A stretch of 64,000 nucleotides of DNA, from assembly GCA_000182565.2 (NCBI GenBank), contig KQ257471.1. The stretch is one strand, 5' to 3'. Made by a program: the position numbers and the translations under genes. This stretch comes from Spizellomyces punctatus DAOM BR117. Its lineage: Eukaryota. Positions 4,251 to 64,000 of this stretch are shown piece by piece. A model generated the notes under the pieces. That model did no database searches, had not been told where the DNA came from, and was given only the letters and a program-made list of their open reading frames with translations. Position 1 is the first letter of the stretch, and every line of letters starts with the position of its first letter.

Positions 4251-4495
4251 AGCGTGCAGTCTCGTCTTTTAAAGCGTATAGAAAAGTCAAGAATGCAGAA
4301 CGAGGGGAGAATCGGGTGCGGGCCCGCTTTATAAACAGCAGTTCCCTTTGACAGGCCCGTGCGCCTCGTCCGCGCGCGCGACGCACTTCGATCATGGACT
4401 TGACAGCCGTCATATGTGCGCTCTCATTGTTGCCATGGCAATAGACAACCACCGCACTAGCAGGCTTGGGACCTTTATTGATCACATCAACAAGT

Positions 4496-6818
4496 ATGGC
4501 ACGAAGAAGCTACTCACCAGAAGACAGACGACAAAGTTACTCGCATAAGCGGGACAATAGTGCTTCTCCTGACCGGGTTAGAAGAAAATCGGAGCGCAGC
4601 CGTGAGCGTGGTAGAGACGTCAGTAGGACTGGACGAGATGGATACAATGGGCCTGACCGACGACACAATCGTGATCGGCGAAGAGAATACAGTGAGAGTC
4701 TCGATGGTAGTGACCGTGAGCAGGATCGAAAAAGGAACAGAAGCCGGACCCGAAGTCGACAAAGGAGCGTGAGTGCTGATAGTAGTCGAGATCGAAAGAG
4801 AAGCAAAAAAGATAAAAAGGAGTCAAAGAAGAAGCGCGAGACGTCTGAAGAACGCCGTGCGAGGAAAGCAGAGAGAAAAGCCGAGAAGAAACAGCTGAAA
4901 GAGGATCTAAAAGCTCAAAAAGAGTCACAAATCGCAGCTCAAATGTCGGCGTCGCTCGGCTACTCCAATTCTGAAAATCCTTTCGGGGACAGTAATTTGA
5001 GTGCAAAATTCGTTTGGCTAAAGAAACGAGAGAAGGAATCAAAGGAAGGTTTGATGGGAAGCGAGAGAATCCGAAGGGATCTGTCAAGACGAGAGGAAAT
5101 CGAAACCGAATTGGACAAGCTGAAAAAGCGCCGCACAGAGAGGGAAATAGAGCAACAGCTGAGGGAACAGGAACAGCTAAGACTGCAACGGGAGCAGGAC
5201 CGCATTGCAATGGGCGATTGGGAGTCGAAGGAAAATGAGTTCCACTTGGAACAAGCAAAGACAAGAGCACAGATTCGGATCAAAGAGGGGCGTGCCAAGC
5301 CAATTGACATCTTTGCAATGAACCTCAGCTTGGCAAGTGACTCTCGAGTAGCGGAGGAATTCGATGCGCTTGGATTCGAAATGGGAATTGAAGAACCGTA
5401 TCTCATTTTCCGTGATCTGACCCTCGAGGAGGTTGAAGAGCTGCACAAGGATATCCAGCTATACCTATCACTGGAAACAGATGAAAACAATGTCCGATTC
5501 TGGGAAGCCATGATCGTTGTATGCGATGACGAATTGGCCAAGCACCGTAGCGCCGCTGCGGGATCAGTGCCAAGCGGTGTCACGGACGCAATAGCCGAAG
5601 ACATTGAAAAGATGTTTGCGAATAAAACTCATGATCAGCTCACACTACTACAAAAACAGATTGAGAAGAAACTGAGCCAGGGAGGACCTGTAGATGTAGA
5701 GTATTGGGAGACAGCCATCAAAGCGTTAATTGTATGGAAGGCGAAAGCTAAACTCCGTGATATGCATGGTTTCATGCTACGGAAGCGGCTGGAGCGTCTG
5801 CGCGAAAAGAAGCATACTGAAATGGAGACAGGTGTTACCCCACAACCCATTCAATTCCGGAGGGAAGACCCCGACGCTACGGCTGCCTCCATGGCGGCGG
5901 AGGCTGAAGAGGAAGTGGAAACGGATGAGGAGATGGAAGAATACGATCCATCAATGAGTCCTGTCCTCGTTGACAGAATCAGCAAGGTGGATGCCGGGTT
6001 CGAAGTGGTGGATGAAGAGGTGGATCTTAACCAGTTGGTAAGTAGGACGGTTAGAACGGTTCTTATTCATATGCAAACCATTATCCTTACGGACTACATT
6101 TCAGATGGAAGCGCGGAACCTTGTCTTAAAGAGCCAGCTTGGTGTTTTGGGTGGATTGAGTGCTGAGAAGGCACTCGCCCTTGCTGGCGCAGGGCCTTCG
6201 ATGGAAGACCTGGCTGAGCAGGCATTCATGAGGGAAGCTGCCGAGAATATGGGCTTGGACGAGACGGCATTCAATGAAGAGGCAATTATATCTGCATCCG
6301 CAGCGACACAGGTGGGAATTTTACTGTTCGCTGATACATTTCCACCAAACTGAAACTGACATCGTTTTCAGGATCCGTACCTCTGGCATGACAAGTATAG
6401 ACCGCGCAAGCCTCGATACTTCAATCGCGTCCATACTGGGTATGAATGGAACAAATACAATCAAACACACTATGACAGTGATAACCCACCACCCAAGGTA
6501 CGTGGGTTTTGCGCCGTACTATAGTCATCGATCATAACCCTTTTCTTGTCCTAGGTCGTGCAAGGCTACAAATTCAACATATTTTATCCTGATCTTATTG
6601 ACAAAAGCAAGGCGCCAACATATGTACGCGAGAAAGATGAAGGATATCCAGATACAATCATCTTGCGGTTCAAAGCGGGTCCTCCTTACGAAGACATTGC
6701 TTTCAGGATTGTCAACAGAGAGTGGGAGTATTCACATAAAAAGGGCTTCAGAAGTTCTTTTGATAGAGGTGTGCTGCAGCTGTGGTTCCACTTTAAACGG
6801 CATTACTATAGACGATAG
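4496..6818 (+). CDS. CACTIN: Cactin (spliceosome-associated), multi-exon
   Basis: RS-rich N-terminus; GYSNSENPFGDSNL; FHLEQAKTRAQIRIKEGRAKPID; C-terminus GYKFNIFYPDLID...FKAGPPYEDIAFRIVNREW...QLWFHFKR. Confidence 0.95.
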
Positions 6819-10786: not shown

Positions 10787-12432
10787 ATGTCTAGGTTACC
10801 TGCGACATGGGAAGCTCGGAGTACTGCTTCAGGAGTTGGCGGATGGAATGATGTTGCGTCCGCTGCGGAAGCTCCGACCCAAGCTCAGGCTTTTCACACA
10901 CCTTCACAGCTGCCAATTATCCCAAAGAGGAAGAAGAAGAAGAACTTCGATCCAAGTTGGCTCAAAGCTCCGCCCCACTTGATGCCAGGATATGAGGAAA
11001 AATTGGAATGCCGTGGTTGTGCTAGGATGCTTTCCAAAGGAAGCTTCTCAAAAGTGCAGCTGAGAGAAGATGATCGCCGCCGATGCAGGTACTGCGAAAT
11101 TTATCAACCACAGTCGCCACATTTGTAATCGCCACTTCCAGGGAATGCATCGATGAATACGAAGGCTCGTGGGCCGATGTTCAGCGTCCCTCCAAAACGG
11201 CAGAGATCTCCAACGGCCCGACGCCTGTCAAAGCCGCAACGAAGCCGATATATAGTGACATAGCACGTAGCCAGGCGAGCAGGCCCCAGGAAGCGACGGG
11301 AAACGGTCGACGTCTTGTCCAAACAGCTCATCTCTCTCACGGCGCGACACCTGTCAAAGCCGCCCCAAAGCCAAGATTTGGTGAGGGACCACGTAGACAG
11401 GAAACCAGACCACTGCAGAAGACGACGGCAAATGGTCAACGTTCTCGCGAAACAGTTCATCTTTCCCACGGCGCGACGCCTGTCAAAGCTGCTGTGAAGC
11501 CAAAATTTAATGAGGGAACAGGAAGACAGGACACCAGACCCCAGAAAACCACGGAAAGTGTTCAACGTCCTCTCGAAGCAACTCATCTCTCCCACGGCAC
11601 GACGCCTGTCAAAGCTGCAGAAACTTTCGAGCGACAGCGGAGACCGCAAAATAGACTAGATAAACCCAGTCAGACCGCTGTCGTAAAGGGCTATGAGGGG
11701 ACGGCCAACCAGCCTGGAATAACCCGGGATCTGGACTTGGATGCTGTATATTATTCCCGGAAGCGACAACTTAGTGAGATTGCTCTTCTTAAAGACATAT
11801 TCTTAGAAGGGGAGTTTGGATGGATGGCATGTGATGATATATCAAAGGTAACAGTATGAGGACGCCACGGCTATTGTCAATCGACATCATTATTAATTGA
11901 TGATGGTCCTACGTAGGATATCATGACTGTATATGACGGTGCTCATGATGATCCAACTGTTCTCAGTCTGATACCCAGCGACCATGAGTTTCGTTTCGCA
12001 ATTCAGCTGACTGGACCTACCGCAAAGTCTTTAGGTACTCTTGGGTTGTACTGCATCTGTCAAGTCACGCTGACTTTTCCCAATTTAGAGCCATGTCAGA
12101 TTCGCTTTACATTGCCGCCCAATTACCCATATTGCCGTCCAGTCTGCAGGTTTACTTGCAGCACCGATGTAAGCTGACAGACTTTACAGTATTGCATGTC
12201 AAGTGTTAACCCAACAACAGTTTCCACATGTCGCCAACACAGTCGCTTCTGCCCTGAAGACATACATGCTATCCCTAAAAAGTAACGTACCTCATAGCTC
12301 AATCTGTATCGCCGCTATATTCCTGACCCAACACCCCTATCAGTCGAAGACGGGCGAGTAGCCCCGTGTTTACTTGATATACACCAGTTTGTGTTTTCTC
12401 AAGTAGATACCTTTTCCGGAGCATTGCTATGA
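10787..12432 (+). CDS. Protein with Stc1-type zinc finger, internal ~42-aa repeats and C-terminal RWD domain
   Basis: Intron 11089-11141 (GTACTG..TTCCAG) joins CRGCARMLSKGSFSKVQLREDDRRRCR to ECI, giving CxxC..FS..QL..CxxC. Later exons give SEIALLKDIF, IRFTLPPNYPYCRP and APCLLDIHQFV (RWD-like). Confidence 0.65.
11200..11625 (+). repeat. Four degenerate coding tandem repeats, ~123-129 bp period
   Basis: Core ACGCCTGTCAAAGC (peptide HLSHGATPVKAA / ISNGPTPVKAA) recurs near 11220, 11347, 11476 and 11601. Confidence 0.85.
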
Positions 12433-12679
12433 AGCCAGAAAAACAAAGTGGTATACCCCAGCGGTTGATAGACTGAAACAATTTGACATGTACTGTGAAG
12501 CTCCCAACCAGGCACCATTGAAACCTATTGCGAAAGGTGCAGAGTGAACCTGTTGCTGATTGCACATGCTGAAATTATTAGCTCAATTGTGTTATGCGCT
12601 GTTACGGTAGATCAGATGGCTTGGATAGCTCTCGTTATATAAATATGTGTGTATGTGTGTAAATGCAATATCGATGCAC

Positions 12680-14576
12680 CTACTGGCTATTTGATTGGGT
12701 TGGCACGTCAGTTGCCACTTTTGCCCAGCCCTCCAATTCCGTCTCATCAACCCATTCACCAGTCAACATGCTCTCTTTCGCAGCAAGCACCACGTCAGCT
12801 CGCCGCTTCTTCCCCTCTCTCTTGATAGCTTTCTTCTGCGTAGTCTTTTCGCGTTTCGTCATTTTCGGTGCTTCCACCTCATTCGGGTCCGGTTCCACAT
12901 AACCAGGTTCGCCTACGTTCGGTTTTGTTCGACCTGTGGTTCTTCGCAAACTTTCCTCATCTACTTGTTCTATCCATCCATTTGCATCTAAAGCTTCGCG
13001 ATCACGGGTACTTTCCCCACCTGGACCATCCCACGATGCTAAAACTACCGGATGGGGAGTTACTCCCGTCGTGGTGGCCACGTCAGGCAACCGATTATTC
13101 AGTGACGTCTCTAATCGTTCTAATTTCGCACTACCACGCTTTGTCGCTGTGGGGCGTTGATACCCACGGTCCAAAAACAACATTGTACGATTCCACTTGA
13201 CAAAATCGATAGCTTGACTGCCTTTGAAAGGGGCGGAATCAAAATGTTTCTTCAAAAGTGCTGTGTCCATCCGTCCCTCGATGCGAAGCTTCCATGCCGA
13301 ATGGGACGTTACTGGCTTCGCGGGAGTATGGCGGTCCTTTTTAGACGAGGTTCTGCGCGTACGGAAAAGTTTTTCCTGCTTAGGTGTCTCAGAAGACTTT
13401 CGTGCGGCAGGGGCTGACCACCAGGAGGCATCCTTTTTGTCGCCTGCTGAGTCTTCAAGGACTTCACCAGCACCCAATACTTCCTGTATGTACTTTAGCG
13501 TCTCGGGTTCGTGCCATTTGACTTCAGCATATACGGCCTGCGCCCCAGTGTCTACCCTAAGCCGACCCCTAGCCTCAAAAAAGCCCGTGAACCAGTGGTC
13601 ACCAAGTCGTGGGGCGGTGTTTGGTCGACAAAATAATTCAGGATGCCCCAGTTCTCTGCACAGGCGCGAAATTTCCGCCTGTCGTTCTGGTATCCAAGAT
13701 CGCCCTTGCAGCAAGCGTGCCATCCTTAGCAGTCCATGAGGTTCGTAGCATCGCCATACCATGTTTCCATCTGGAAGGCTTCGTACGACGCTGTACCGGA
13801 CCATCATCTTAATATAATACAGCGCGCTCACTTCGATGGCGGGCAAAACGATCTCCCATACATGCCGGGGCCAGCCCTCTCCACGTTTAAAGTATATCGT
13901 ACCAGCTGCGTCGTTCAGACCAGCGAGCCAGTCCACGAAACGGGTTGGATCACTTTGGAAAGCATCTGTCAGCCTGGAAAACAAAAGGAGGTGGGGACGT
14001 TCGACTGTAAGGGGATCTAACTGCTCAATCGGATCACTGCCTTCCCATGGCAATCTTTTCCGTCTCCTTGGTCTAGTAGGTGGAGTATGCGAACTCCCGT
14101 CCTTTGGTTCTGGACTTTCTGCTGCAGGTTTGGTAATCTCTTTTTTTGATGGCAGCCGACGCCTAATTTCCCTGGGTTCAAACCTTACGCCATCATCTGG
14201 CAAAGAACCATATCCTTTTTCCCGTTCACCGCGACTTGAAACCGCACCCCACTGCGACTCTCGGGCATTCAAATCATCACCCAAGTGTTTTACTTTCGGC
14301 GATCGGCGTGTCCAGGTGCTGTTCTGTTTCGCCCCATTGTAAGTCACCCCCAGCAGATTTTCAGCACGGAATCCACACCTACGCATGTGTTAGAGTCAGG
14401 TGGACGGGGCAGACAATGCAGAAGAGCAGCTCAGCTACTAACTTGGTCTCGCTGGTCGAATTTCGGGCGCTGGACGTCAAGATGGAAACTGACAAGAGTC
14501 TATAATAGCTACGAAAAAGGCGGTCACAACCCCCCCTCGCAAATTTGCAGACTTGAGGAGGTGCAACTGAGGACAT
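12680..14576 (-). CDS. Nuclear-encoded double-motif LAGLIDADG homing-endonuclease-derived protein with putative mitochondrial presequence
   Basis: Motifs WLAGLNDAAGTI and WFTGFFEARGRL; C-terminal LAGLIDADG signature WKLRIEG..LLKKHFDSAPFKGSQAIDFVKW. An upstream exon (ATG 14576) joins in frame through intron 14379-14442 (GTTAGT..CTAAC..TAG). Confidence 0.75.
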
Positions 14577-15769: not shown

Positions 15770-17085
15770 TCATATACCCTCCTCCGGCCACAGCCATCCA
15801 TATGTTTGCCAGCCATCCAAATCCCCAGTCTGAAGTGCCCGGTATGCATCATAAAGCTGCCTAAAGCCCTCAAACTTGCTGGATTGGTCTGCCACCTTTG
15901 CGATATCTAGCTCTACATCTTCTTCTTCATCATCATCATCATCCCATACGCTGCTCGAGTTCGTCTTCGTCTTAGCGGACGCAGATGTCTTGGGTTTACC
16001 AACCTCGCGATGGATCTCACTCACTGGAGTGATGATAACGGCCGTACCGCACGCTGCTACTTCTTCAAAACCTCCCGAGCGCACCTCCTCCCATGGTACT
16101 CGTCTCCTTTCTACTCCCCAGCCAAAGCGCAAGGCTGCCAATTCGCACAAGCTACGGTTTGTGATCGATGCCAGGGCGCTGGTACTCTTGGGAGTGACGT
16201 AAATCCGCTTACCGTTGGCATCCGGAGCGGTCAGAGCAGCAAAATTAGAGGTAGCAAATTCGTCGACATACTTGTTTTCTTTGGAGTCCAAAAACAAGAG
16301 GACGGTGTAGCCCTTCTCTTTGGCTGCTAGAGTAGGGCCCAGCGACGGTGCATAGTTACCGCCCATCTTAACTTGTCCCGTCCCGTACGTCGCAGCACGG
16401 TCAAGTTTGTGCTTTATAAGCGCCTTCGTCGGAGCACCCATTCCCCCAACATAGTACTCGCCAACAGGAATAACCAGCACTATGAAGATGTATTCCTTTG
16501 CAGGAGACAATCCAACCTGAGCCCCTGAGCCAAAGACAAACGGACGAATGTACATGGCTCCATTCGAACCGTATGGAGGAACGTAATCAATGTTCGCCTC
16601 TATTGCTCGACGGACAGCCGACAGAAAAAGTTCCTCCGGAGGAGCTGCCATGCATAAACTACGGCATGACTTTATCATCCGTCGCGCATTGAGTTCTGGA
16701 CGGAAGACACGGACCTAGATAGACCGACAGCGGTTAGTTTTATTATGAATTTTAAGTGAACAAGCCTGCTGGACTGTCTACCTTCCCGTCTTTCATACGA
16801 AACGCCTTGAGACCCTCGAAACAGGACTGACCATAGTGCAGTACCGTTGCTTAAGGTAAAGTTGAGAATGTCAGGAAAAGCCCTTGTGCAGCCGACGGGC
16901 AGGCGGCCTTAACACCTACCCGCAACATCCAGCGTGACTTTAAAATCCTTGAGGAGTTCCCCTTCGTTCCATTTGCCGTCCTTCCATACATATTTGACAC
17001 AGCCATTCGTCTTCACATAAGAAAATCCCAGGTTTGCCCAGTCAATGGTTGCGGGGTCAATGCGATCGGGAGCGTAGGAAGCCAT
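15770..17085 (-). CDS. Branched-chain amino acid aminotransferase (PLP fold IV)
   Basis: IDWANLGFSY, LHYGQSCFEGLKAF, FRPELNARR, MYIRPF, PLP-binding Lys in VKMGGNYAPSL, ACGTAVIITPV. Confidence 0.92.
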
Positions 17086-17321: not shown

Positions 17322-19094
17322 TTACACGGTAACCACGTTTTCCAGATGTCCCTTCACAGCTCCTCCAATGTTGACCAGGTCGATCAAAAATGTATCATGT
17401 CCATACATGGCATCAAGTTCGTAGTAGGTTACATTGCGGTTACCGGCTTCTTTTAAACAATCTGCAATTTCCTTCTGCTGCCAATATGGAAATAGGATGT
17501 CCGATTGCACGCCCAGAACCAATGTCGGCATCGTAATAGGTGACAGACCTTTAACCAATGCAGCGCGATCTGAGGGCGACGCCGTTGTTGACGACAATGG
17601 CTGATGGGGGGATGGGTGAGAGATGGGGCAGTCAACCGGTTTGTGTTGCGTTTGCTGGTGACACTCCGGACTGTGCACGTTAGGGTCAGGTGGCAGCGGA
17701 TAACTCATGTCGAACATGTCCATTGCTTTTGAAATATACAAGAGGGAATTTGGGTCATACTGGAGGCAAAACCGCTCTCCCTAAGCAACCGCATGCCACA
17801 AGTCTGATTAGTATCTAGCACAGGGACATTGCATAAGCGCGACCTCCCACCTGATGGTCCAAGTATGTCTCAATGAGAAAATCTGGACACAACGCGGGTG
17901 TTTGGTCAGGATTCGCTCGTTTCCTTCCAAATCGCTGCTCCCATTCCGGGCCAGACCGATAACTGGACGGTACACGAAATAATGTATTGATATCGGCTTT
18001 AGCAAGCTTTCAGGACATGCTCCTCCTACCTGATGGTTGCAATTTGGCGTGCCAACTGAAATTTCGAAACGTTAGTCTCCGATGCTATCTTTCTTAGTCA
18101 AGATAAGACAAATGCTTACCTTCATACCAACATGAGGCGGTACTCCTTGATAGTAAAATCCCTCTCTCCAGTTAGGGTCAGCCATCAATACTTTCCGAGT
18201 CGACAAATTATTAGCACAGATAGATCGACAACGGCGCACTAATCAGAGAAGCTTACCTTGCCGTTGGGTGTGACGCAGCGCAATGGAGTAGGGATGTGAT
18301 CGAGCTGCTCCTGAAATGGATACTACTCGCCCAACGCGTTCCGGGAACAAGGCGGCAGCCGCTAGAGATTGCATTCCTCCCATTGAACTCCCAACGCTAG
18401 CATGCAGCTTCTGAATACCAAGACTGTCAAGAAGCTTAAATTGTGCCCGAATCATATCAAAGATGGTGATAATCGGGAATCGGGTCGCGTATCGCTCGCC
18501 ATTGGATGGGTCAATACTGGATGGCCCAGTTGACCCATAACATCCTCCGAGGGCGTTCGTACATATTACAAAGAATTTGTTGGTGTCAATGGGATATCCA
18601 GGACCTATAAACTTCTCCCACCACCCATCCTTCGTATTCTTCTCATGACTTTTAGCGTGACTGCTAGCACTTAATCCTGTGTGCAGCAAAATAGCATTGT
18701 CTTTGGCGGCATTCAGTGTTCCCCACGTCTCATAAGCAATGTCAAACTCGGGTAGCACGCCGCCGTGTACAAACTTGAAGGGTTCACTGTGATGGTATGT
18801 TGAATAGCCAGAAACAATCTTGTCATATGCTGGTTCTGGTCCACCGTCAAGCGAGCGTTCCCGCTCAGCATTGCGTTCAAGGCATGGGAAAGAAAGTGCA
18901 GGATTGGACGAGCGAGATGTTGATGCAGATGTAATATGGCGTGCAAAGTATGACGGTTCTTGTCGTCCTGTTGCGGTAAGAAGGATGGTGGGTCTCGTAA
19001 GAATTGTTCGCTCCCCCAAGATGAGGGCGTTCTTTGATGGAATACCGCTAATAGCGCTGCGTATTCGCCAGGCTGGAACTGTAGGTTTGAACAT
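17322..19094 (-). CDS. cys2: Serine O-succinyl/acetyltransferase (Cys2/CysA-type, MetX fold), probably mitochondrial
   Basis: [34 protein letters not shown] nucleophile motif, SDILFP, YGHDTFL; Arg/Ser-rich N-terminus. Start approximate. Confidence 0.85.
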
Positions 19095-19678
19095 TGGTGA
19101 TAGCTTGACGGACAATAATCGCCTATGCAGAAGCAAGACTGCAAACAAAGGAGGGAAGGAGGGAGGACAGTGGGCTTAAAGGCGGTGGAAAGCTTTCAAA
19201 TCCAAGATCACTTTCAATCACGTGCTCACGATCGCGTCTTGTCCGTCCAATCTTTTTGTTGCAACGCTTTGGTGGTCGGGTTTGTAAACATGGTGCGTAA
19301 CTGCGAACGTCCAAAAGTACATCGCCCTTGATGAGGAATAATATATGTATTACTTGTCTTGTCGTAGCATATCATCAGAAAAGTGACTCTTCTGCCGCTT
19401 AGCGTGGGCTTGAAGCAGGCCAGATAAATACAAGTTTCATGCATTGTTCTCTCCAATAGGGTCACGTGATACGATGTTTACGTGAACAAAGTGTCATGTT
19501 CCACTCCACCAGGCGACGATACTCTACGCGACGAAAAGCCACGCATCGGGATTGCCTCTCCAAGTTTTGGAGCCTCGTATTGAGGTTTCTTTGAATCGGG
19601 ATCGGGCGCCTGTAACTTTCCTCCGTATTTGCTACCTATCGGGTTTTCCAACCGTTCCGAGAGCATTCGCGGCTAATA

Positions 19679-52000: not shown

Positions 52001-54632
52001 GTGGTGGACATGCTTGGTTCACCCAGTGACAAAAAGGAGCTGCCCCATGTGTTCCTACCCCACATCGTTTCGTTGATCCTATTCTACGTAATGGTGAGTC
52101 CAAGTCTTGTAGTTTTTCTTCGAGCCCAGCGGTAACAACTTTGTGCTTCAACAGGGGCATATTACCAGCTTCATGTCGTTGATCGGGTATTACCTTTTTC
52201 TCGAGTTCATGAATCCGACGTATTTCTCGTCCCGCTATTATGTGTTCCTAGTGGGAATCGCTCTATTTCCTGTCATTCAATTTTTGATGTTCGCTGCTGC
52301 CATTGGGTTAAAATGGCTCGTTATTGGAAAGTTCCGACCGGGAAAGTACAGATTGTACTCGTTTTACTATTGGAGGTGTGCTACTAGTTATTTCGTGGCT
52401 TGCAGAAAACTGTGATATTAACGGATCACTTACCCTCACTTTTTCGGCTCAGATGGTGGATCGTTAGTCGTGTTACCGCAATGGTTCCGGCTGCTTTCAT
52501 GCGTGGTTCACCCCTGCTTCGTATCTATTTGCGTTTGCTTGGTGCTAAAATCGGGCGCAACGTTCACCTGCAGTCAGTTTTCGTATCTTCGTTCGATCTG
52601 ATCACCATCGGCGATAACACTTCAATCGGGTCTGATGCTCACCTATACGGATTTCATGTCATGAACGGTTATCTGCACATTGGACGGGTGACAATTGGTG
52701 AAGGATGCTACGTTGGTGCCCGCTCACATTTGGAACCAAACACGTCGATGGGCGATCGGGCGCAGCTTGGCGAATTATCATGTGTTGGAATGGGACGGCA
52801 TATTCCATCGGGCGAGAGTTGGACTGGGTCTCCTGCTGAGCCTGTGGACCCAGCTTCCATCCTTTGTGCAGATATGGTCATCCCCCTCCGAAAAAGACGC
52901 AGCTGCTTTGGTCGCATGTTTGAGGCCATCGGTGACTTCCTGCACGCCCTCTTTTTCGTTTTCGCATACTTCATCATGGCTATCATGATGTTTGGGGCAT
53001 CTGTACCGAATTTAATTCTTTTGCTATTCACCGGAAATGTGATAAGCTCATGGACTATGCGGATGGCAATCTATATACCAGTCATGGGGTGAGTGACAGT
53101 AACTACGTTTCCCGCTGTCCAGCTGTAGTAACGATGTTGAATATCCTCTTTAGTCCAATCTATTGCGTTTGCATTGCCTTTCAGCTGGTGATTCTTAAGT
53201 GGCTTATCGGTGGCCGTATTCAACCTGGAGTCTATAGCACACGATCCTTCGCTTACTTCCGTATATGGTTCGTTGACAAAATGGTCCAGACCTCGCTCAG
53301 CGCACTGGGTGGAATGTACGCGACTCTGTATCTTCCACCGTGGCTCTCAGCAATGGGTATGAAAGTGGGGAAGACTGTAGAAGTGTCTACTGCGGCGAAC
53401 TGGACTCCGGATCTCTGTACGTTGGGTGACAGGTCGTTCCTCGCCGACAACGTCTGCCTCGGCGCGCCTGTGTTTCATGGTGGAATGGTGAAAGTTAGCC
53501 ACACGGAGATTAGGGAGAGGTCTTTTGTTGGAAACAGCGGGCTCATGCCATCCGGTAGCACCATTGGCAAGAACTGCTTGATCGGCGTCAATTCAGTGCC
53601 TCCTGCCAGTCTCGCAGAATGCCAAAGCTCTCAAACGGTCTCCGAAAAGAACAAAGAACATGGTTTCGTTGTGAATGTGGAAGAAGTTATACCACCTGGT
53701 TCCCGTTACGATGTTCCCGACGGTACATCTTGGCTTGGCTCACCAGCAATGAACCTCCCCGCTCGCGCTTGTGCAGTGAAAAAATTCAAAGAATCGAAGA
53801 CCTTCCAGCCGTCTCGCAAGCGTTATTTGCAACGGTATTTGATCGAGTTCTTCAGGGTGACTGGTCCTGCCATGATTGAAGGAGGAACTTTGGTTGGCGC
53901 GTTCATACTGGCCATGTGGCTGGACCTGAGGTGGTGGCATCTTTGGCTCTACTGGCCGCTCTTGCATATCGGTCGTGGAATTTGCTTTTGTGCCTGTGTA
54001 TGGCTCGCCAAGTGGATATTGATCGGCCGCTATATTGCTCAGGAACAGCCCTTGTGGTCCGTTTATGTTTGGAAGGCCGAGGTAAGAAAGTCGCAAGGTG
54101 CCTGGCTTATGCTGTTTACCGTTATCTAATCTCTTGTTTACTTATCCAGCTTGTCAGCGGTTGGGAAGAATTCGGCTGCAATCCAGCTTTCGTCTCTGGT
54201 CTTCAGGGAACTCCGTGGATAAATCATTGGTTTCGCTCTCTAGGTGCCAAAATTGGTCGGCGCTGCTACATTAACACGGTAAGTGCACACCAGCAGTTAC
54301 TCGGTCAGCTGCGCTTTTCTCATTATCATCGATTACTTTTGCTCCTCCAGGTGTGGTTCTGCGAACCTGATTTGATTAGTATCGGCGATAACGTGTGCCT
54401 AAACACGGATGTTGTCCTGCAAACGCATCTGTTTGAGGACCGAATTATGAAGATGTCACATTTGCGTATCGAGGACCATGTGTCAATTGGCGGCGCTTCA
54501 GTGATTCTCTACGACTCAGTCATTGAAGAAGGGTGTCATGTTGATTCGCTTTCGTTGGCCATGAAAGGCGAAGTACTCAGTTCTTGGACGCATTGGCGAG
54601 GGACGCCAGCCCAACCTGTTTTCCAGGGATGA
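49011..54632 (+). CDS. Pls-type (epsilon-poly-L-lysine synthetase-like) NRPS: degenerate C-like domain, A, T, then three TM/left-handed beta-helix modules; ~10 introns
   Basis: A-domain motifs LKSGAAYVPID, YTSGSTGKPK|G, FDAS, NTYGPTE, GEIHVGG, YKTGDL, QVKLRG|HRIELGEIE, LPSGKVDR; T domain DFFALGGHS; three KW...LG(A/M)K(I/V)G repeats ending LQTHLFEDRIMK. Confidence 0.9.
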
Positions 54633-54942
54633 TGCGGATTTCTGCATAATGCGACGCTGTATTTGCTTTGTATTACTCTAATAGACACGCTTCACAAGAT
54701 CAATTACACTAAGTGGCTTATGTGAGAACTAAGTATTTAGAGTTCGAGATGCGAGTTGCAAAGCACGAGAATAACAACTTGAGATGCATCTATTCATACA
54801 TCGAACATTTAATTCACAAAATACTCAGAAATCGTAGATGCCATAGTGTACCGGATTCAAAAGTAGTCCTTCGCGGTTTTCGGCATGACTGCAGAGAGGA
54901 GGGAAGTTACCTAACAAGTATCCGGGTTCATTCTTGCACAGG

Positions 54943-55157
54943 TGCAAGGTAGACCTGTTCTTTGGTCTTCGCACGCAGTTGCGGACTTTGATTTTTGCGA
55001 CGCGTCTCGCGTGCCATATGACCATATATAGTTATAGTGATCATGTATCCATGTATAGCTAAAGTATGGCGCAGCGCGTAGCAGTTAGCTTAGGAAAACC
55101 CCGCCGCGCCGACAACCTGTCAAAGTCTGTCGGTTCCACGGCGGCCCCGTAGTTAGA
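54943..55157 (+). mobile_element. Partial LTR copy, inverted relative to the LTR at 55913-56450
   Basis: TGCAAGGTAGACCTG...CCCCGTAGTTAGA aligns with the reverse complement of 56239-56450 over ~215 bp. Confidence 0.8.
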
Positions 55158-55912
55158 TGTTTATTCTTTGCCTCATTGCATGGCACTGTCACAAGACGGA
55201 TTTCCCTCCCATTTGTTTGTTGGGGTACGGTTGTCTGTATCACTTGAGAATTATGGTACGGGGTCTTTTTTGTGCGGTTAACACCAATACTGTGTCACTA
55301 TGCACATATATGTTCAAGTGGGACTTCTATTGGCCAATTCTCACTTACAACAGCTGCTCTGTGATCTCTATGGCTAGAATTGATGTTTGATGGTTGAAAA
55401 TGGGTCTTTGTGATCAAAGGACTTTTTTTTATGGTTGAAAGCATACTTTCTATGGTTGCATTGTTCTAAAATGCACTTTTGATGGTCTGAAAATGAGTTG
55501 GTACAATCAGTTTGTGTTAAAAACATCATTTCAATGGTTTGTGAGTGTAAATATCTTGTTTTCTAATTATCGCTCAGTGTTTCAGTATCTCCAGCATGGA
55601 ATGGTTCTTCGTGACTGACTAGAGAAATTAAAACACAAGCAACACCAGTAAAGGTATGTAGAAAAACTAAAATATATATATATTTGCTACAAGAAAAGGG
55701 GAATCCAGTGCAAACATGCCTCTTATATACTGCTAAAACTATGTACTCTAGAAGAAAAATTGTAAAGTAGGGAGATGAACCATAGGTTTGAAATATAATG
55801 GATTAAGATTGCTCTATTAATTTCCCATCACTGGAATGCTTTATATACCATGCATTTACATAAGCTTTAAATACAATATCCATGTGTCGCACATATGGCA
55901 CTAGCACTTTCT

Positions 55913-56450
55913 TGTAACGTCAATCGACCAGATTGCTCTAGTTGATGTGTTTCTTGTGAATCATTGAGCCCTGTGAGAGGGCTGTATAAAGACTTTGTTG
56001 TTAATACAAGATAAAGGGAACTATTGATAGTTCCTCACATTGCTAACTAGGCTAGTTGTTCTTCTAGTTTTTCCTTGCTTGCTGCCTCCCCTTCTGAGGG
56101 GCTTTGGGGCAGCACTTTTTTATGCTTGCTCCCTCCTTCGGCGGGGCGTCGGCATGAGATTTCCTGCCCCCGCCGGTGCGGTCCCTCTTGCGCCAATCGG
56201 AAGTGATTGGCACTAGCAATTAAAGGGACAAATAATCTTCTAACTACGGGGCCGCTGCGGAACCGAACAACTTTGACAGGTCGTCGGCGTGGCGGGGCTT
56301 ACATAATCTAACTACTGTTATGCACTGCGCCATACTTTGGCCATACATGGCTACATGATCACTATAGCTATATATGGTGTATGAGAGACGCGTCATGAAA
56401 ATCTAAGTTCGCACTTGCGTGCAAATACCAAAGGACAGGTCTACCTTACA
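55913..56450 (-). repeat. Putative 3' LTR (~540 bp) of the Gypsy element
   Basis: On the minus strand it starts TGTAAG, ends GTTACA, is preceded by a GGGGGG polypurine tract (56451-56456) and contains a TATA-like CATAAAAAAG. Confidence 0.7.
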
Positions 56451-61860: not shown

Positions 61861-62283
61861 ATGTGAAGGCTCTGCTGCAGGGGGACCAATACATCTTCTT
61901 CATCATTCATTAGTGACAGCATTACTACAAAGTGAGGCACTTGGGGACAATTTCATCAAAAATATTCCCAGGGAAAAAGTGCCACAGGATAAAACCAATG
62001 GTAAAAATTGGAAGCTTATGGAAAGTAAAAAATTATGTAGAGACATGTAGGGATGAGAAATGTCCCCATTTTCCTAGCAAGATTGCAAAAAGAATAGAAA
62101 TATCCACATGTTTAAATGGCAACATTGGTTTCCTTGTTTACACAAAAATCCACAGAAGATGTAGGCAACTCAGGCGTCAGAACTCATCCCATCTCAACAT
62201 TACCTTTGAGGCATACCAGCCGGGATTGGCCACTCCGCGCCCGGCATGCCTGCCGGCATCCTCATGTCCGTTCTTCAAATGGA

Positions 62284-63384
62284 CTACATCTGCGCCGGCA
62301 TCTTCTGCCGCAGAATTTCTATGTGCAAAAATGTACCCTTCGGACGAACTTTTAACTTTTTCTGTTGCAATCTTGTTTTAGTAGGTCGTGTTTGTACAGG
62401 CTCCAACTGATGAATTTCTTTGTGAACTTCTTTTTGTGTTCTGGTCAATTTTACTGGTAGATGACCTGGTTTCTCGGTAATCGGTGCATTGGTTTTCTGT
62501 AATTCATAGTATTTGAAACGCTGGTCTATTTCTTTACCATTGGCGTATGCTACTACGAATCGATAGCCATCGACATTGACTATATGGTATACTTCATCAG
62601 ACCATTTTGCCTCGTATCCTTTTTTGAAAATATCCTGTTTGAGTAATATTCTTACATGGTCGCCAATGTCAAACTTCTTGAAATCACTTACAGCCTTGCT
62701 ATTATCGCGTAGATAATCACCATTAGCAACATCGACAGGTGCCTTTTTCAATAGACTGTGATATGAAGTATTGTAGTTCATAACAAGGTCAGGAAGAGCA
62801 TCTATGTAGCGCTTAGTTTTAAATACGGTCATGTATCTGGAGATAACACTTTTCAGTGTGCGATTAAACCTTTCGACCAGACCCATATGGTTATGGTCTG
62901 CAACTTCAGCCATGTAATGGTTTATACCATACTTATTGAGCAATTGCTCAAAAACAATGTTGTTGTACTCTGAACCCCTATCAGTCGTGATATTTTTAGG
63001 ACGCCGCCTAGCGAGTAACTTTGTAAAACAATCAGCAATCTTTTCTCTGGTTTTATTCTTGAGAGGAAAAACAAAGGCATAACGAGAGTACACGTCTACA
63101 ATACATAACAGATAACGGTAACCATTGTTGTAGGTAGCATATTTCTGCATGTTGCACAAATCCGATTGCCATATGTGATCAACACCATTGGCTGTTATAT
63201 GCATGTAGTTAGGCTTGACAAGAGGTTTGTGTACTTGTTGCACATGCTGACTGTCGATGAATGTCTTTATATCCTTTCTGGAAATACCCTGATCCTTGAG
63301 TCTCTGGTAGAGCTTTTCTATGCTCTGAAGTCCAGTCTTGGGATCATAGTAAACTTTCTTGATTAGTTCGGTTTTTGTCCCCAT
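62284..63384 (-). CDS. Polinton/Maverick rve-type (DDE) integrase
   Basis: YYDPK..EKLY, WQSDL, GYRYLLCIVDVYSRYA, TDRGSEY, VERFNRTLK, RYIDALPDLVMNYNTSYH, FDIGDHVRI..FKKGY..KWS, YYELQK. Confidence 0.92.
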   Translation of the reverse strand: MGTKTELIKKVYYDPKTGLQSIEKLYQRLKDQGISRKDIKTFIDSQHVQQVHKPLVKPNYMHITANGVDHIWQSDLCNMQKYATYNNGYRYLLCIVDVYSRYAFVFPLKNKTREKIADCFTKLLARRRPKNITTDRGSEYNNIVFEQLLNKYGINHYMAEVADHNHMGLVERFNRTLKSVISRYMTVFKTKRYIDALPDLVMNYNTSYHSLLKKAPVDVANGDYLRDNSKAVSDFKKFDIGDHVRILLKQDIFKKGYEAKWSDEVYHIVNVDGYRFVVAYANGKEIDQRFKYYELQKTNAPITEKPGHLPVKLTRTQKEVHKEIHQLEPVQTRPTKTRLQQKKLKVRPKGTFLHIEILRQKMPAQM

Positions 63385-63385
63385 T

Positions 63386-64000
63386 TTAAAAACCGAAAGG
63401 AAGTGTCTCTATGACCTTAGACTCAGAGTTAAATTCTTGAACCACACGTTTGTTGTAGACAAACTTGTACTTTTTGCAGGGTGAGTTATTTTTTTCTGGT
63501 ATGATGATCTTTGTCTTGTTACGCACACTGTGTGTTTTACTAATGTTGATTTCGCTAAAGTTAAAATTAACACAACTCTCTTTCTCAATACCTTCATCAT
63601 CAATGTACCTAGGGTTAAATACTATATCCTTCATAGACTCATGTCCAAGATTGAGTCCATTTTCATATGAAAGTGCGAAGCCTTTACAGACCGTCTTTGC
63701 TCTCCCTGTTTTGTTGAGAATGTAAGAGTAATTCTTAGCGCCACCTGAAACAAATTCTACAATATGGTCGCCTTTCAATTCATCTGTCAGGTCTCCAAGA
63801 TAATTACCATAGGGCAAAGTCTTTTCAGTTGATCCTATATCATCATCAACATATATAATAGAATCAGTATCATAGTACAACACCTTTTCCCCTACAGTAT
63901 CCAGAACACTGTAAAGTTTACAACGAGCCAAAGCGGTAGTGTATGCAGCAATGAAAATACTAGTATTCTTGTCATCACGAACAGCAGCCTTATGCAAGGA
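63386..64000 (-). CDS. Polinton-type protein-primed family B DNA polymerase, C-terminal part (truncated by window edge)
   Basis: IAAYTTALARCKLY, LYYDTDSIIY, GNYLGDLTDEL, EFVSGGAKNYSY, CKGF, KRVV..TLPFGF*. Confidence 0.93.
   Translation of the reverse strand, partial: SLHKAAVRDDKNTSIFIAAYTTALARCKLYSVLDTVGEKVLYYDTDSIIYVDDDIGSTEKTLPYGNYLGDLTDELKGDHIVEFVSGGAKNYSYILNKTGRAKTVCKGFALSYENGLNLGHESMKDIVFNPRYIDDEGIEKESCVNFNFSEINISKTHSVRNKTKIIIPEKNNSPCKKYKFVYNKRVVQEFNSESKVIETLPFGF

Follow-up and report, generated by a model that had tools for sequence, protein, structure and literature searches.

The stretch analysed here, 64,000 nt of contig KQ257471.1 from the chytrid Spizellomyces punctatus DAOM BR117 (referred to as the window), carries a two-exon gene, SPPG_08533, at positions 12680–14576 of the minus strand. 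The gene codes for a protein of 610 amino acids (aa), and all its features described below lie on the same strand. Exon 1 (14443–14576, 134 nt) starts with the start codon and comprises 44 codons plus 2 nt; its product is a basic, acid-poor N-terminal peptide that is a putative mitochondrial presequence. It is followed by a spliceosomal intron of 64 nt (14379–14442), in which GTTAGT serves as donor, TAG as acceptor and CTCTAAC as a branch-like site. Exon 2 (12680–14378, 1699 nt including the stop codon at 12680–12682) encodes residues 45 (in part) to 610.

A sequence-only reading of this DNA had joined the upstream exon in frame via a 64-nt GT-AG intron, and this arrangement was confirmed. The spliced product is letter for letter identical to the deposited protein P0001 (NCBI "uncharacterized protein SPPG_08533", Spizellomyces punctatus DAOM BR117), and therefore the splice proposed in that reading is the splice of the deposited annotation. 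All its statements on the sequence itself proved correct on re-check. The annotation of the S. punctatus genome was produced by combining gene predictors with RNA-Seq (PMC4991717). Retention of the intron ends the exon-1 frame after 65 aa (open reading frame (ORF) 14379–14576). An in-frame ATG is located at 14384–14386, within the last 8 nt of the intron, and an unspliced or downstream-starting transcript could in principle give a 568-aa form without the N-terminal peptide and might thereby permit dual localisation.

LAGLIDADG homology and predicted fold

The Pfam model LAGLIDADG_1, suggested along with the sequence-only reading as a way to verify the homology, did not recognise the protein: a Pfam scan of the 568-aa ORF resulted in no family at E≤10. 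None of seven relatives (P0005–P0011) passed the gathering threshold of PF00961 (LAGLIDADG_1) either, with P0009 remaining narrowly under the cut-off (20.4 bits versus 23.1). In all eight members scanned (the P0001 ORF and P0005–P0011) no Pfam domain exceeded its cut-off, and the database listing gives no Pfam domain for P0002 and P0003.

Homology was revealed by a phmmer search with the 393-aa core of the protein (P0004, window 12887–14065) against 1.84 billion representative sequences, which returned 40 proteins at E≤1e-3. Nine of these are long (610–1090 aa, SPPG_08533 itself included) and constitute, together with P0002 from a separate search, a family of ten long proteins. The remaining 31 matches (P0012–P0042) are short (169–543 aa), with E values from 4.6e-12 to 5e-4, and PF00961 was found above the Pfam cut-off in every one of them (31/31). 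One of the short relatives, P0013, also contains fused cytochrome b exon domains, the arrangement of a mitochondrial intron ORF. A single-sequence search of the PDB sequences gave only 5gkk, a "putative homing endonuclease", at a marginal E of 0.21; with a profile of the ten long proteins, two homing endonucleases of solved structure were matched, 5gkk at E 1.2e-7 and 3e54 at E 5e-4. In a language-model feature search the best score was 0.90 with 175 shared features, and the best 5 of 30 matches were all LAGLIDADG_1 clusters. Word-index homology searches with the family alignment and with residues 290–720 of P0009 led to no new members.

We also modelled the core with AlphaFold2, using a 41-row alignment. 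The model (predicted local distance difference test (pLDDT) 81.5, predicted template modelling score (pTM) 0.82) consists of two alpha-beta-beta-alpha-beta-beta-alpha units. As judged from the model and from the phmmer matches to PF00961 proteins, the double LAGLIDADG core comprises residues 176–476 (13085–13987). When the model was compared to the PDB with Foldseek, 88 structures matched at E≤1e-3; the best 50 of them are I-OnuI, I-PanMI, I-SmaMI, I-LtrI and similar meganucleases, at E ~3e-11 and a probability of 1.00. VIA-align aligned 232 residues (model residues 27–327) to I-GpeMI with a Z score of 20.1 and a root-mean-square deviation (rmsd) of 2.6 Å, and the best 50 entries listed were all titled meganuclease or LAGLIDADG homing endonuclease. 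Structure prediction, the second test suggested at the outset, hence returned a LAGLIDADG fold (pLDDT 81.5; Z 20.1). The best structural matches, I-OnuI, I-LtrI, I-SmaMI and I-GpeMI (Z 19–20, rmsd 2.5–3.2 Å, ~230 aligned residues), share only 12–17% identity with the protein; they keep their catalytic acids, cut DNA, and have none of the extra motifs and tails of SPPG_08533.

Homology to LAGLIDADG_1 and the homing-endonuclease fold are established by these data. The descent from a double-motif LAGLIDADG homing endonuclease, as proposed in the sequence-only reading, is borne out by phmmer as well as by the fold (Z ~20). SPPG_08533 is a monomeric protein with two LAGLIDADG motifs; it belongs to the organellar-intron type (LAGLIDADG_1) and has been domesticated.

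Several parts of the protein lie outside the fold or interrupt it. Residues 1–130, including the exon-1 peptide, are disordered in the full-length model. A K/R/S-rich insertion loop in domain 2 (residues 358–402, 13307–13441) is likewise predicted to be disordered, with pLDDT below 50; its residues 361–400 have a net charge of +7, and the length of the loop varies across the family. Towards the C-terminus, a long basic helix is predicted for residues 553–584 (12761–12856; pLDDT 88–94 in the full-length model), and the family alignment shows a charged C-terminal tail in most members.

The chytrid family and its catalytic positions

In a quick maximum-likelihood tree (LG+G4, midpoint root, support values only from the Shimodaira–Hasegawa-like approximate likelihood ratio test (SH-aLRT)), a single branch with an SH-aLRT of 97 separates the ten long proteins from all other rows; the rows adjoining the family (P0032, P0033 and P0038) are long branches flagged unreliable. 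The six members of named origin all belong to the Chytridiomycetes: Spizellomyces punctatus and S. 'palustris', Phlyctochytrium arcticum (Chytridiales in the NCBI taxonomy), Borealophlyctis nickersoniae (Rhizophlyctidales), Blyttiomyces helicus (incertae sedis) and Cladochytrium replicatum (Cladochytriales). In the databases, every deposited member is named as a hypothetical or uncharacterized protein.

The two LAGLIDADG motifs were found at the locations given in the sequence-only reading and with the residues that it had listed for position 8. Motif 1, LAGLNDAAG (residues 196–204, 13901–13927), has Ala at this position, and motif 2, FTGFFEARG (residues 308–316, 13565–13591), has Arg. The absence of both position-8 acids, initially noticed in SPPG_08533, extends to the whole family: position 8 is non-acidic in both motifs of all ten long proteins in the 41-row alignment, the pairs (motif 1/motif 2) being A/R in five cases and S/C, A/A, N/N, C/N and S/T in the others. 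Among the 31 canonical relatives, D is kept in motif 1 of 22 and D/E in motif 2 of 26; both acids are kept in 20/31 and both are lost in 3/31. Fisher's test gave p 2.6e-7 for the position-8 loss, a descriptive value that ignores the shared ancestry of the members. Since the loss is found in 10/10 members, the loss of cleavage would be ancestral to the family and maintained in it. The alignment shows that each motif had already lost its metal-binding position-8 acid when the sampled chytrid lineages separated. In the profile alignment, a conserved Gln of the family is positioned opposite the Lys of the domain-2 'PL.T.K' segment of 5gkk, a residue that presumably lines the catalytic pocket. SPPG_08533 is almost certainly a domesticated, inactive LAGLIDADG protein.

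The family also gained parts of its own, namely conserved N- and C-terminal motifs, the basic disordered loop and the basic C-terminal helix. The family-specific N-terminal motif, LPWEG..PIEQLDP.TV..PH.LLF (residues 154–180, 13973–14053), is located ahead of the core. Its residues W156, P167, L176, L177 and F178 are invariant or nearly so, and pLDDT is 59–77. In the C-terminal motif, NGWIEQ.DE..LRRTTGR..P..GEPG (residues 511–538, 12899–12982; pLDDT 71–88), Q516 is invariant and W513 and L522 are nearly so. When residues 470–610 were used in the language-model feature search, the best score was 0.78 and no known relative was found.

As a measure of conservation we used the region-wise protein identity to the S. 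'palustris' orthologue. It amounts to 188/209 and 130/138 in the two core parts, 76/104 in the linker, 35/46 in the loop and 35/45 in the exon-1 peptide.

Some members show peculiarities of their own. P0007 and P0011, which are grouped in the tree (SH-aLRT 99), have a large insertion of ~60–90 aa inside LAGLIDADG domain 1. A common N-terminal extension of ~300 aa with a conserved PIDYAANPF motif is present in P0009 and P0010. The Phlyctochytrium arcticum orthologue (P0003) contains, at residues ~100–370, several copies of a tandem S/Y/R/D-rich unit (SYSSERSYDR..QSDRGQRG...), and these repeats are absent from the Spizellomyces proteins.

Nuclear setting and possible function

The GC content at third codon positions (GC3) of SPPG_08533 is 0.47, compared to 0.45–0.52 in three neighbouring ORFs, and the gene is single-copy within the window. 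The neighbours, encoding Cactin_mid (4445–6166, plus strand), a class IV aminotransferase (15770–16714, minus strand) and an alpha/beta-hydrolase (18243–19175, minus strand), are ordinary nuclear genes. Together with the spliceosomal intron, this supports the nuclear location of the gene assumed in the sequence-only reading. That the gene is not inside a group I intron or intein holds as well, since neither a Hint/intein Pfam match (E≤10) nor a group I intron context was found. Derivation from an intein was considered and rejected on the basis of the missing Hint match and of the nearest relatives, which are all of the PF00961 type. By fold and sequence SPPG_08533 is a member of the LAGLIDADG_1 superfamily, but it stays below the Pfam threshold and has neither the catalytic residues nor the genomic context of a homing endonuclease; therefore, in functional terms, it does not count as a homing endonuclease.

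Transcription was analysed with X7, an RNA-seq run labelled with the same species name, of which raw reads corresponding to ~6 in 100 of the run were used; the library is a 3′-biased tag library. The reads reached a depth of 54 at 12643–12966, the 3′ end of the gene. Whichever mate orientation of X7 is taken as sense, a transcript of the 3′ end of the gene exists. Three other sets (X1–X3) gave low-depth contigs that are collinear with the genome, intron included, and were read as DNA. Our data demonstrate that SPPG_08533 is a real, expressed nuclear gene.

The first 30 residues of P0001 include 5 K/R versus 1 D/E, the first 40 include 6 versus 1, and residues 11–28 (18-residue window) show a high helical hydrophobic moment. 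In 8/10 members the first 30 aa contain at least three K/R and at most two D/E, so that these N-termini are alike in their basic, acid-poor composition although their sequences are otherwise unrelated. The composition of the exon-1 peptide fits a mitochondrial presequence without proving it, and the protein is probably mitochondrial.

The mitochondria of S. punctatus harbour 15 group I introns, only 3 of which fit standard models, and most of these introns are tiny, atypical and reportedly not self-splicing (PMC8971849). Among the group I maturases, many are LAGLIDADG endonucleases that have degenerated, and action in trans is described for some (PMC3073962). In plants, organellar splicing is served by nuclear genes of intron-protein origin, OTP51 and nMAT1-4 (PMC8393795). 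By analogy to these systems, the putative exon-1 presequence would direct the protein into the mitochondrial matrix, where it would act as a non-cutting nucleic-acid binder and, more specifically, as a trans-acting maturase-like cofactor of mitochondrial group I introns. Its binding partner would be the catalytic core of the 'derived' group I introns, which it would stabilise; these introns are miniaturised and lack ORFs, and as stripped-down ribozymes they would need help from a protein. The gene would have moved to the nucleus, in a relocation as in plant nMAT, and its product would mirror the intron-encoded LAGLIDADG maturases. A role as group I intron splicing cofactor is quite possible, if still short of probable, and is the likeliest of the functions considered here. 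In its strongest form, which makes SPPG_08533 the first nuclear-relocated group I intron maturase and a general trans-acting splicing factor with presequence and RNA-binding additions, the proposal is rather doubtful.

The closest working analogues would be the intron-encoded LAGLIDADG maturases, among them yeast bI3 and bI4 and Aspergillus I-AniI. These proteins are similar to SPPG_08533 in their double-LAGLIDADG fold and in a degenerate or dispensable endonuclease site, SPPG_08533 would on the present proposal stabilise group I RNA as they do, and its relatives include a cytochrome b intron-type ORF. However, they are encoded in the mitochondrial DNA (mtDNA) by the very intron they serve, whereas SPPG_08533 is nuclear and its gene is interrupted by a spliceosomal intron; it is also far longer, with an N-terminal region of ~150 aa, extra N- and C-terminal motifs and a basic tail. 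OTP51 is nuclear-encoded and organelle-directed, has two degenerate LAGLIDADG motifs, and is a splicing factor required for splicing of plastid ycf3 intron 2 (PMC8393795); it is likened to SPPG_08533 by description and not by sequence comparison. In contrast to SPPG_08533, which has no pentatricopeptide repeat (PPR) or other Pfam domain and a predicted disordered N-terminal region, OTP51 contains PPR repeats, and it serves a chloroplast group II intron, while the proposed targets of the fungal protein are mitochondrial group I introns. The nMAT1-4 proteins resemble SPPG_08533 in evolutionary logic only, as relocated maturases that act in trans on several ORF-less introns (PMC8393795), but they belong to an unrelated reverse-transcriptase-type family and act on group II and not on group I introns.

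Several points weigh against a splicing cofactor of this kind. LAGLIDADG maturases mostly serve one or two introns, and the model asks the protein to serve many. Throughout the family the beta-strand segments show strong conservation, and this would also fit a retained, fixed DNA target. We infer both the mitochondrial location and the RNA binding from sequence features. Two members deviate in their first 30 aa, P0006 with 5 D/E and P0011 with only 1 K/R; P0006 originates from a 4.5-kb contig, and its gene model may be wrong. Basic clusters at residues 148–152 (RRRKR) and 549–570 (K/R-rich) could equally be nuclear localisation signals. In the intron region (14344–14505) the depth of X7 was 0.3–0.5 and no joints were listed, the junction thus being unseen in this 3′-biased library. 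Finally, Rhizophydium reportedly has derived introns of a similar kind (PMC8971849), yet Rhizophydiales are absent among the six members of named origin (of ten).

Instead of RNA, the protein may bind mtDNA in a sequence-specific manner without cutting it, as a nucleoid, replication, recombination or transcription factor with an ancestral homing-site-like target. The strand segments RYSVVR, VWRC and GR.RV are kept across orders, as expected for a fixed target, and the intact double-LAGLIDADG saddle fold resembles that of DNA-bound meganucleases; the presequence-like N-termini and the unusual mtDNA of S. punctatus, which consists of three chromosomes (PMC7272585), are also in agreement with this view. 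We nevertheless consider it rather unlikely: the DNA target is so far hypothetical, the precedent for a degenerate organellar LAGLIDADG protein is an RNA maturase (PMC3073962, PMC8393795), and the basic disordered loop and basic helix would be more typical of accessory parts that bind RNA.

The targeting-like N-termini and the basic additions that argue for a splicing cofactor would suit another mitochondrial RNA role just as well, be it as an adaptor in 5′ tRNA editing, in rRNA/mitoribosome assembly or in mRNA stabilisation. Such a role is unlikely in our view, even though 5′ tRNA editing does occur in S. punctatus mitochondria (PMC4991717). A search of titles and abstracts found no link of LAGLIDADG proteins to tRNA editing or mitoribosomes, and the dead active site rules out a role as editing nuclease.

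A nuclear DNA-binding regulator would follow a path like that of WhiA or HO, with the basic clusters as nuclear localisation signals and an N-terminus that is not a presequence. WhiA, a bacterial transcription factor with an added helix-turn-helix (HTH), and HO are similar to SPPG_08533 in that they derive from homing endonucleases and were kept for a host function. HO, a domesticated element (PMC8393795), arose from an intein and is a nuclear protein that has retained DNA cutting, whereas SPPG_08533 is not intein-derived, and no Hint, zinc-finger or HTH domain was detected in the Pfam scan of the 568-aa ORF. Both K/R-rich clusters and a disordered N-terminal region of ~130 residues, as is common in nuclear regulators, would be compatible with such a function. 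However, conservation of the RRRKR cluster does not extend to P0005 or P0006, the basic, acid-poor composition recurs in 8/10 members at N-termini that differ in sequence, and the nearest relatives are organellar-type LAGLIDADG_1 proteins, which makes a nuclear regulator distinctly unlikely.

An active endonuclease or nickase with the metal bound by other residues is highly improbable and was rejected: nearly all members retain an acid at position 6 of the motifs (D201 and E313 in SPPG_08533), but position 6 is not the catalytic position in LAGLIDADG proteins of this type, the acids at position 8 are gone from both motifs in 10/10 members, there is no homing context, and the gene is single-copy in the window. 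A recent nuclear copy of mtDNA (NUMT) or a decaying pseudogene, to which the kinship with mitochondrial-type intron ORFs might point, is practically inconceivable and was likewise rejected, given that the frame is open over 610 codons, that a spliceosomal intron is present and that GC3 and neighbours are nuclear, and given the 3′-end RNA reads and orthologues whose core is better conserved than the linkers; their conservation in several chytrid orders disposes of the NUMT alternative already raised in the sequence-only reading.

While the identity of SPPG_08533 is solid, the function as a splicing cofactor is a well-motivated and directly testable hypothesis. The name 'SPPG_08533' appeared in no paper found in open-access text, and in open-access sources, mostly abstracts, we found no description of the family or of nuclear or domesticated LAGLIDADG proteins in fungi or chytrids. 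This is consistent with the undescribed system suspected in the sequence-only reading. Degenerate LAGLIDADG maturases (fungal, intron-encoded) and maturase genes moved to the nucleus (in plants, group II maturases and OTP51) were already known separately, and both ideas meet in this chytrid family of LAGLIDADG proteins, which is conserved, nuclear-encoded and invisible to Pfam. It provides a candidate protein for the open question posed by chytrid introns that reportedly do not splice on their own (PMC8971849), and a case in which to study how introns of the ribozyme type turn protein-dependent. A whole family of homing-endonuclease derivatives was missed by domain annotation. If the splicing cofactor proves true, a LAGLIDADG intron ORF would have moved to the nucleus early in chytrid evolution, and this relocation would have allowed the group I introns of chytrid mitochondria to shed both ORFs and peripheral domains and to be reduced to ~140 nt. 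SPPG_08533 would then be a fungal group I counterpart of plant nMAT/OTP51 and represent a step toward a protein-dependent, spliceosome-like regime.

Convergent transcript and other features of the window

Just beyond the 3′ end of SPPG_08533, at 12400–12642, an oppositely oriented pile of RNA-seq reads represents a convergent neighbour on the other strand. The orientation switches at 12642/12643, and the convergent transcript ends a few dozen bases from the 3′ end of the gene. Adjoining this switch is a short CA-rich repeat (12635–12661), which was skipped in read mapping.

Farther away, a 258-aa ORF on the plus strand (11083–11859) contains 3–4 copies of a ~45-aa repeat (...HLSHGATPVKAA.KP...) and matches no Pfam family. 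The GC content drops to 0.425 at 54001–56000 and to 0.389 at 62001–64000, compared to ~0.47–0.50 elsewhere in the window.

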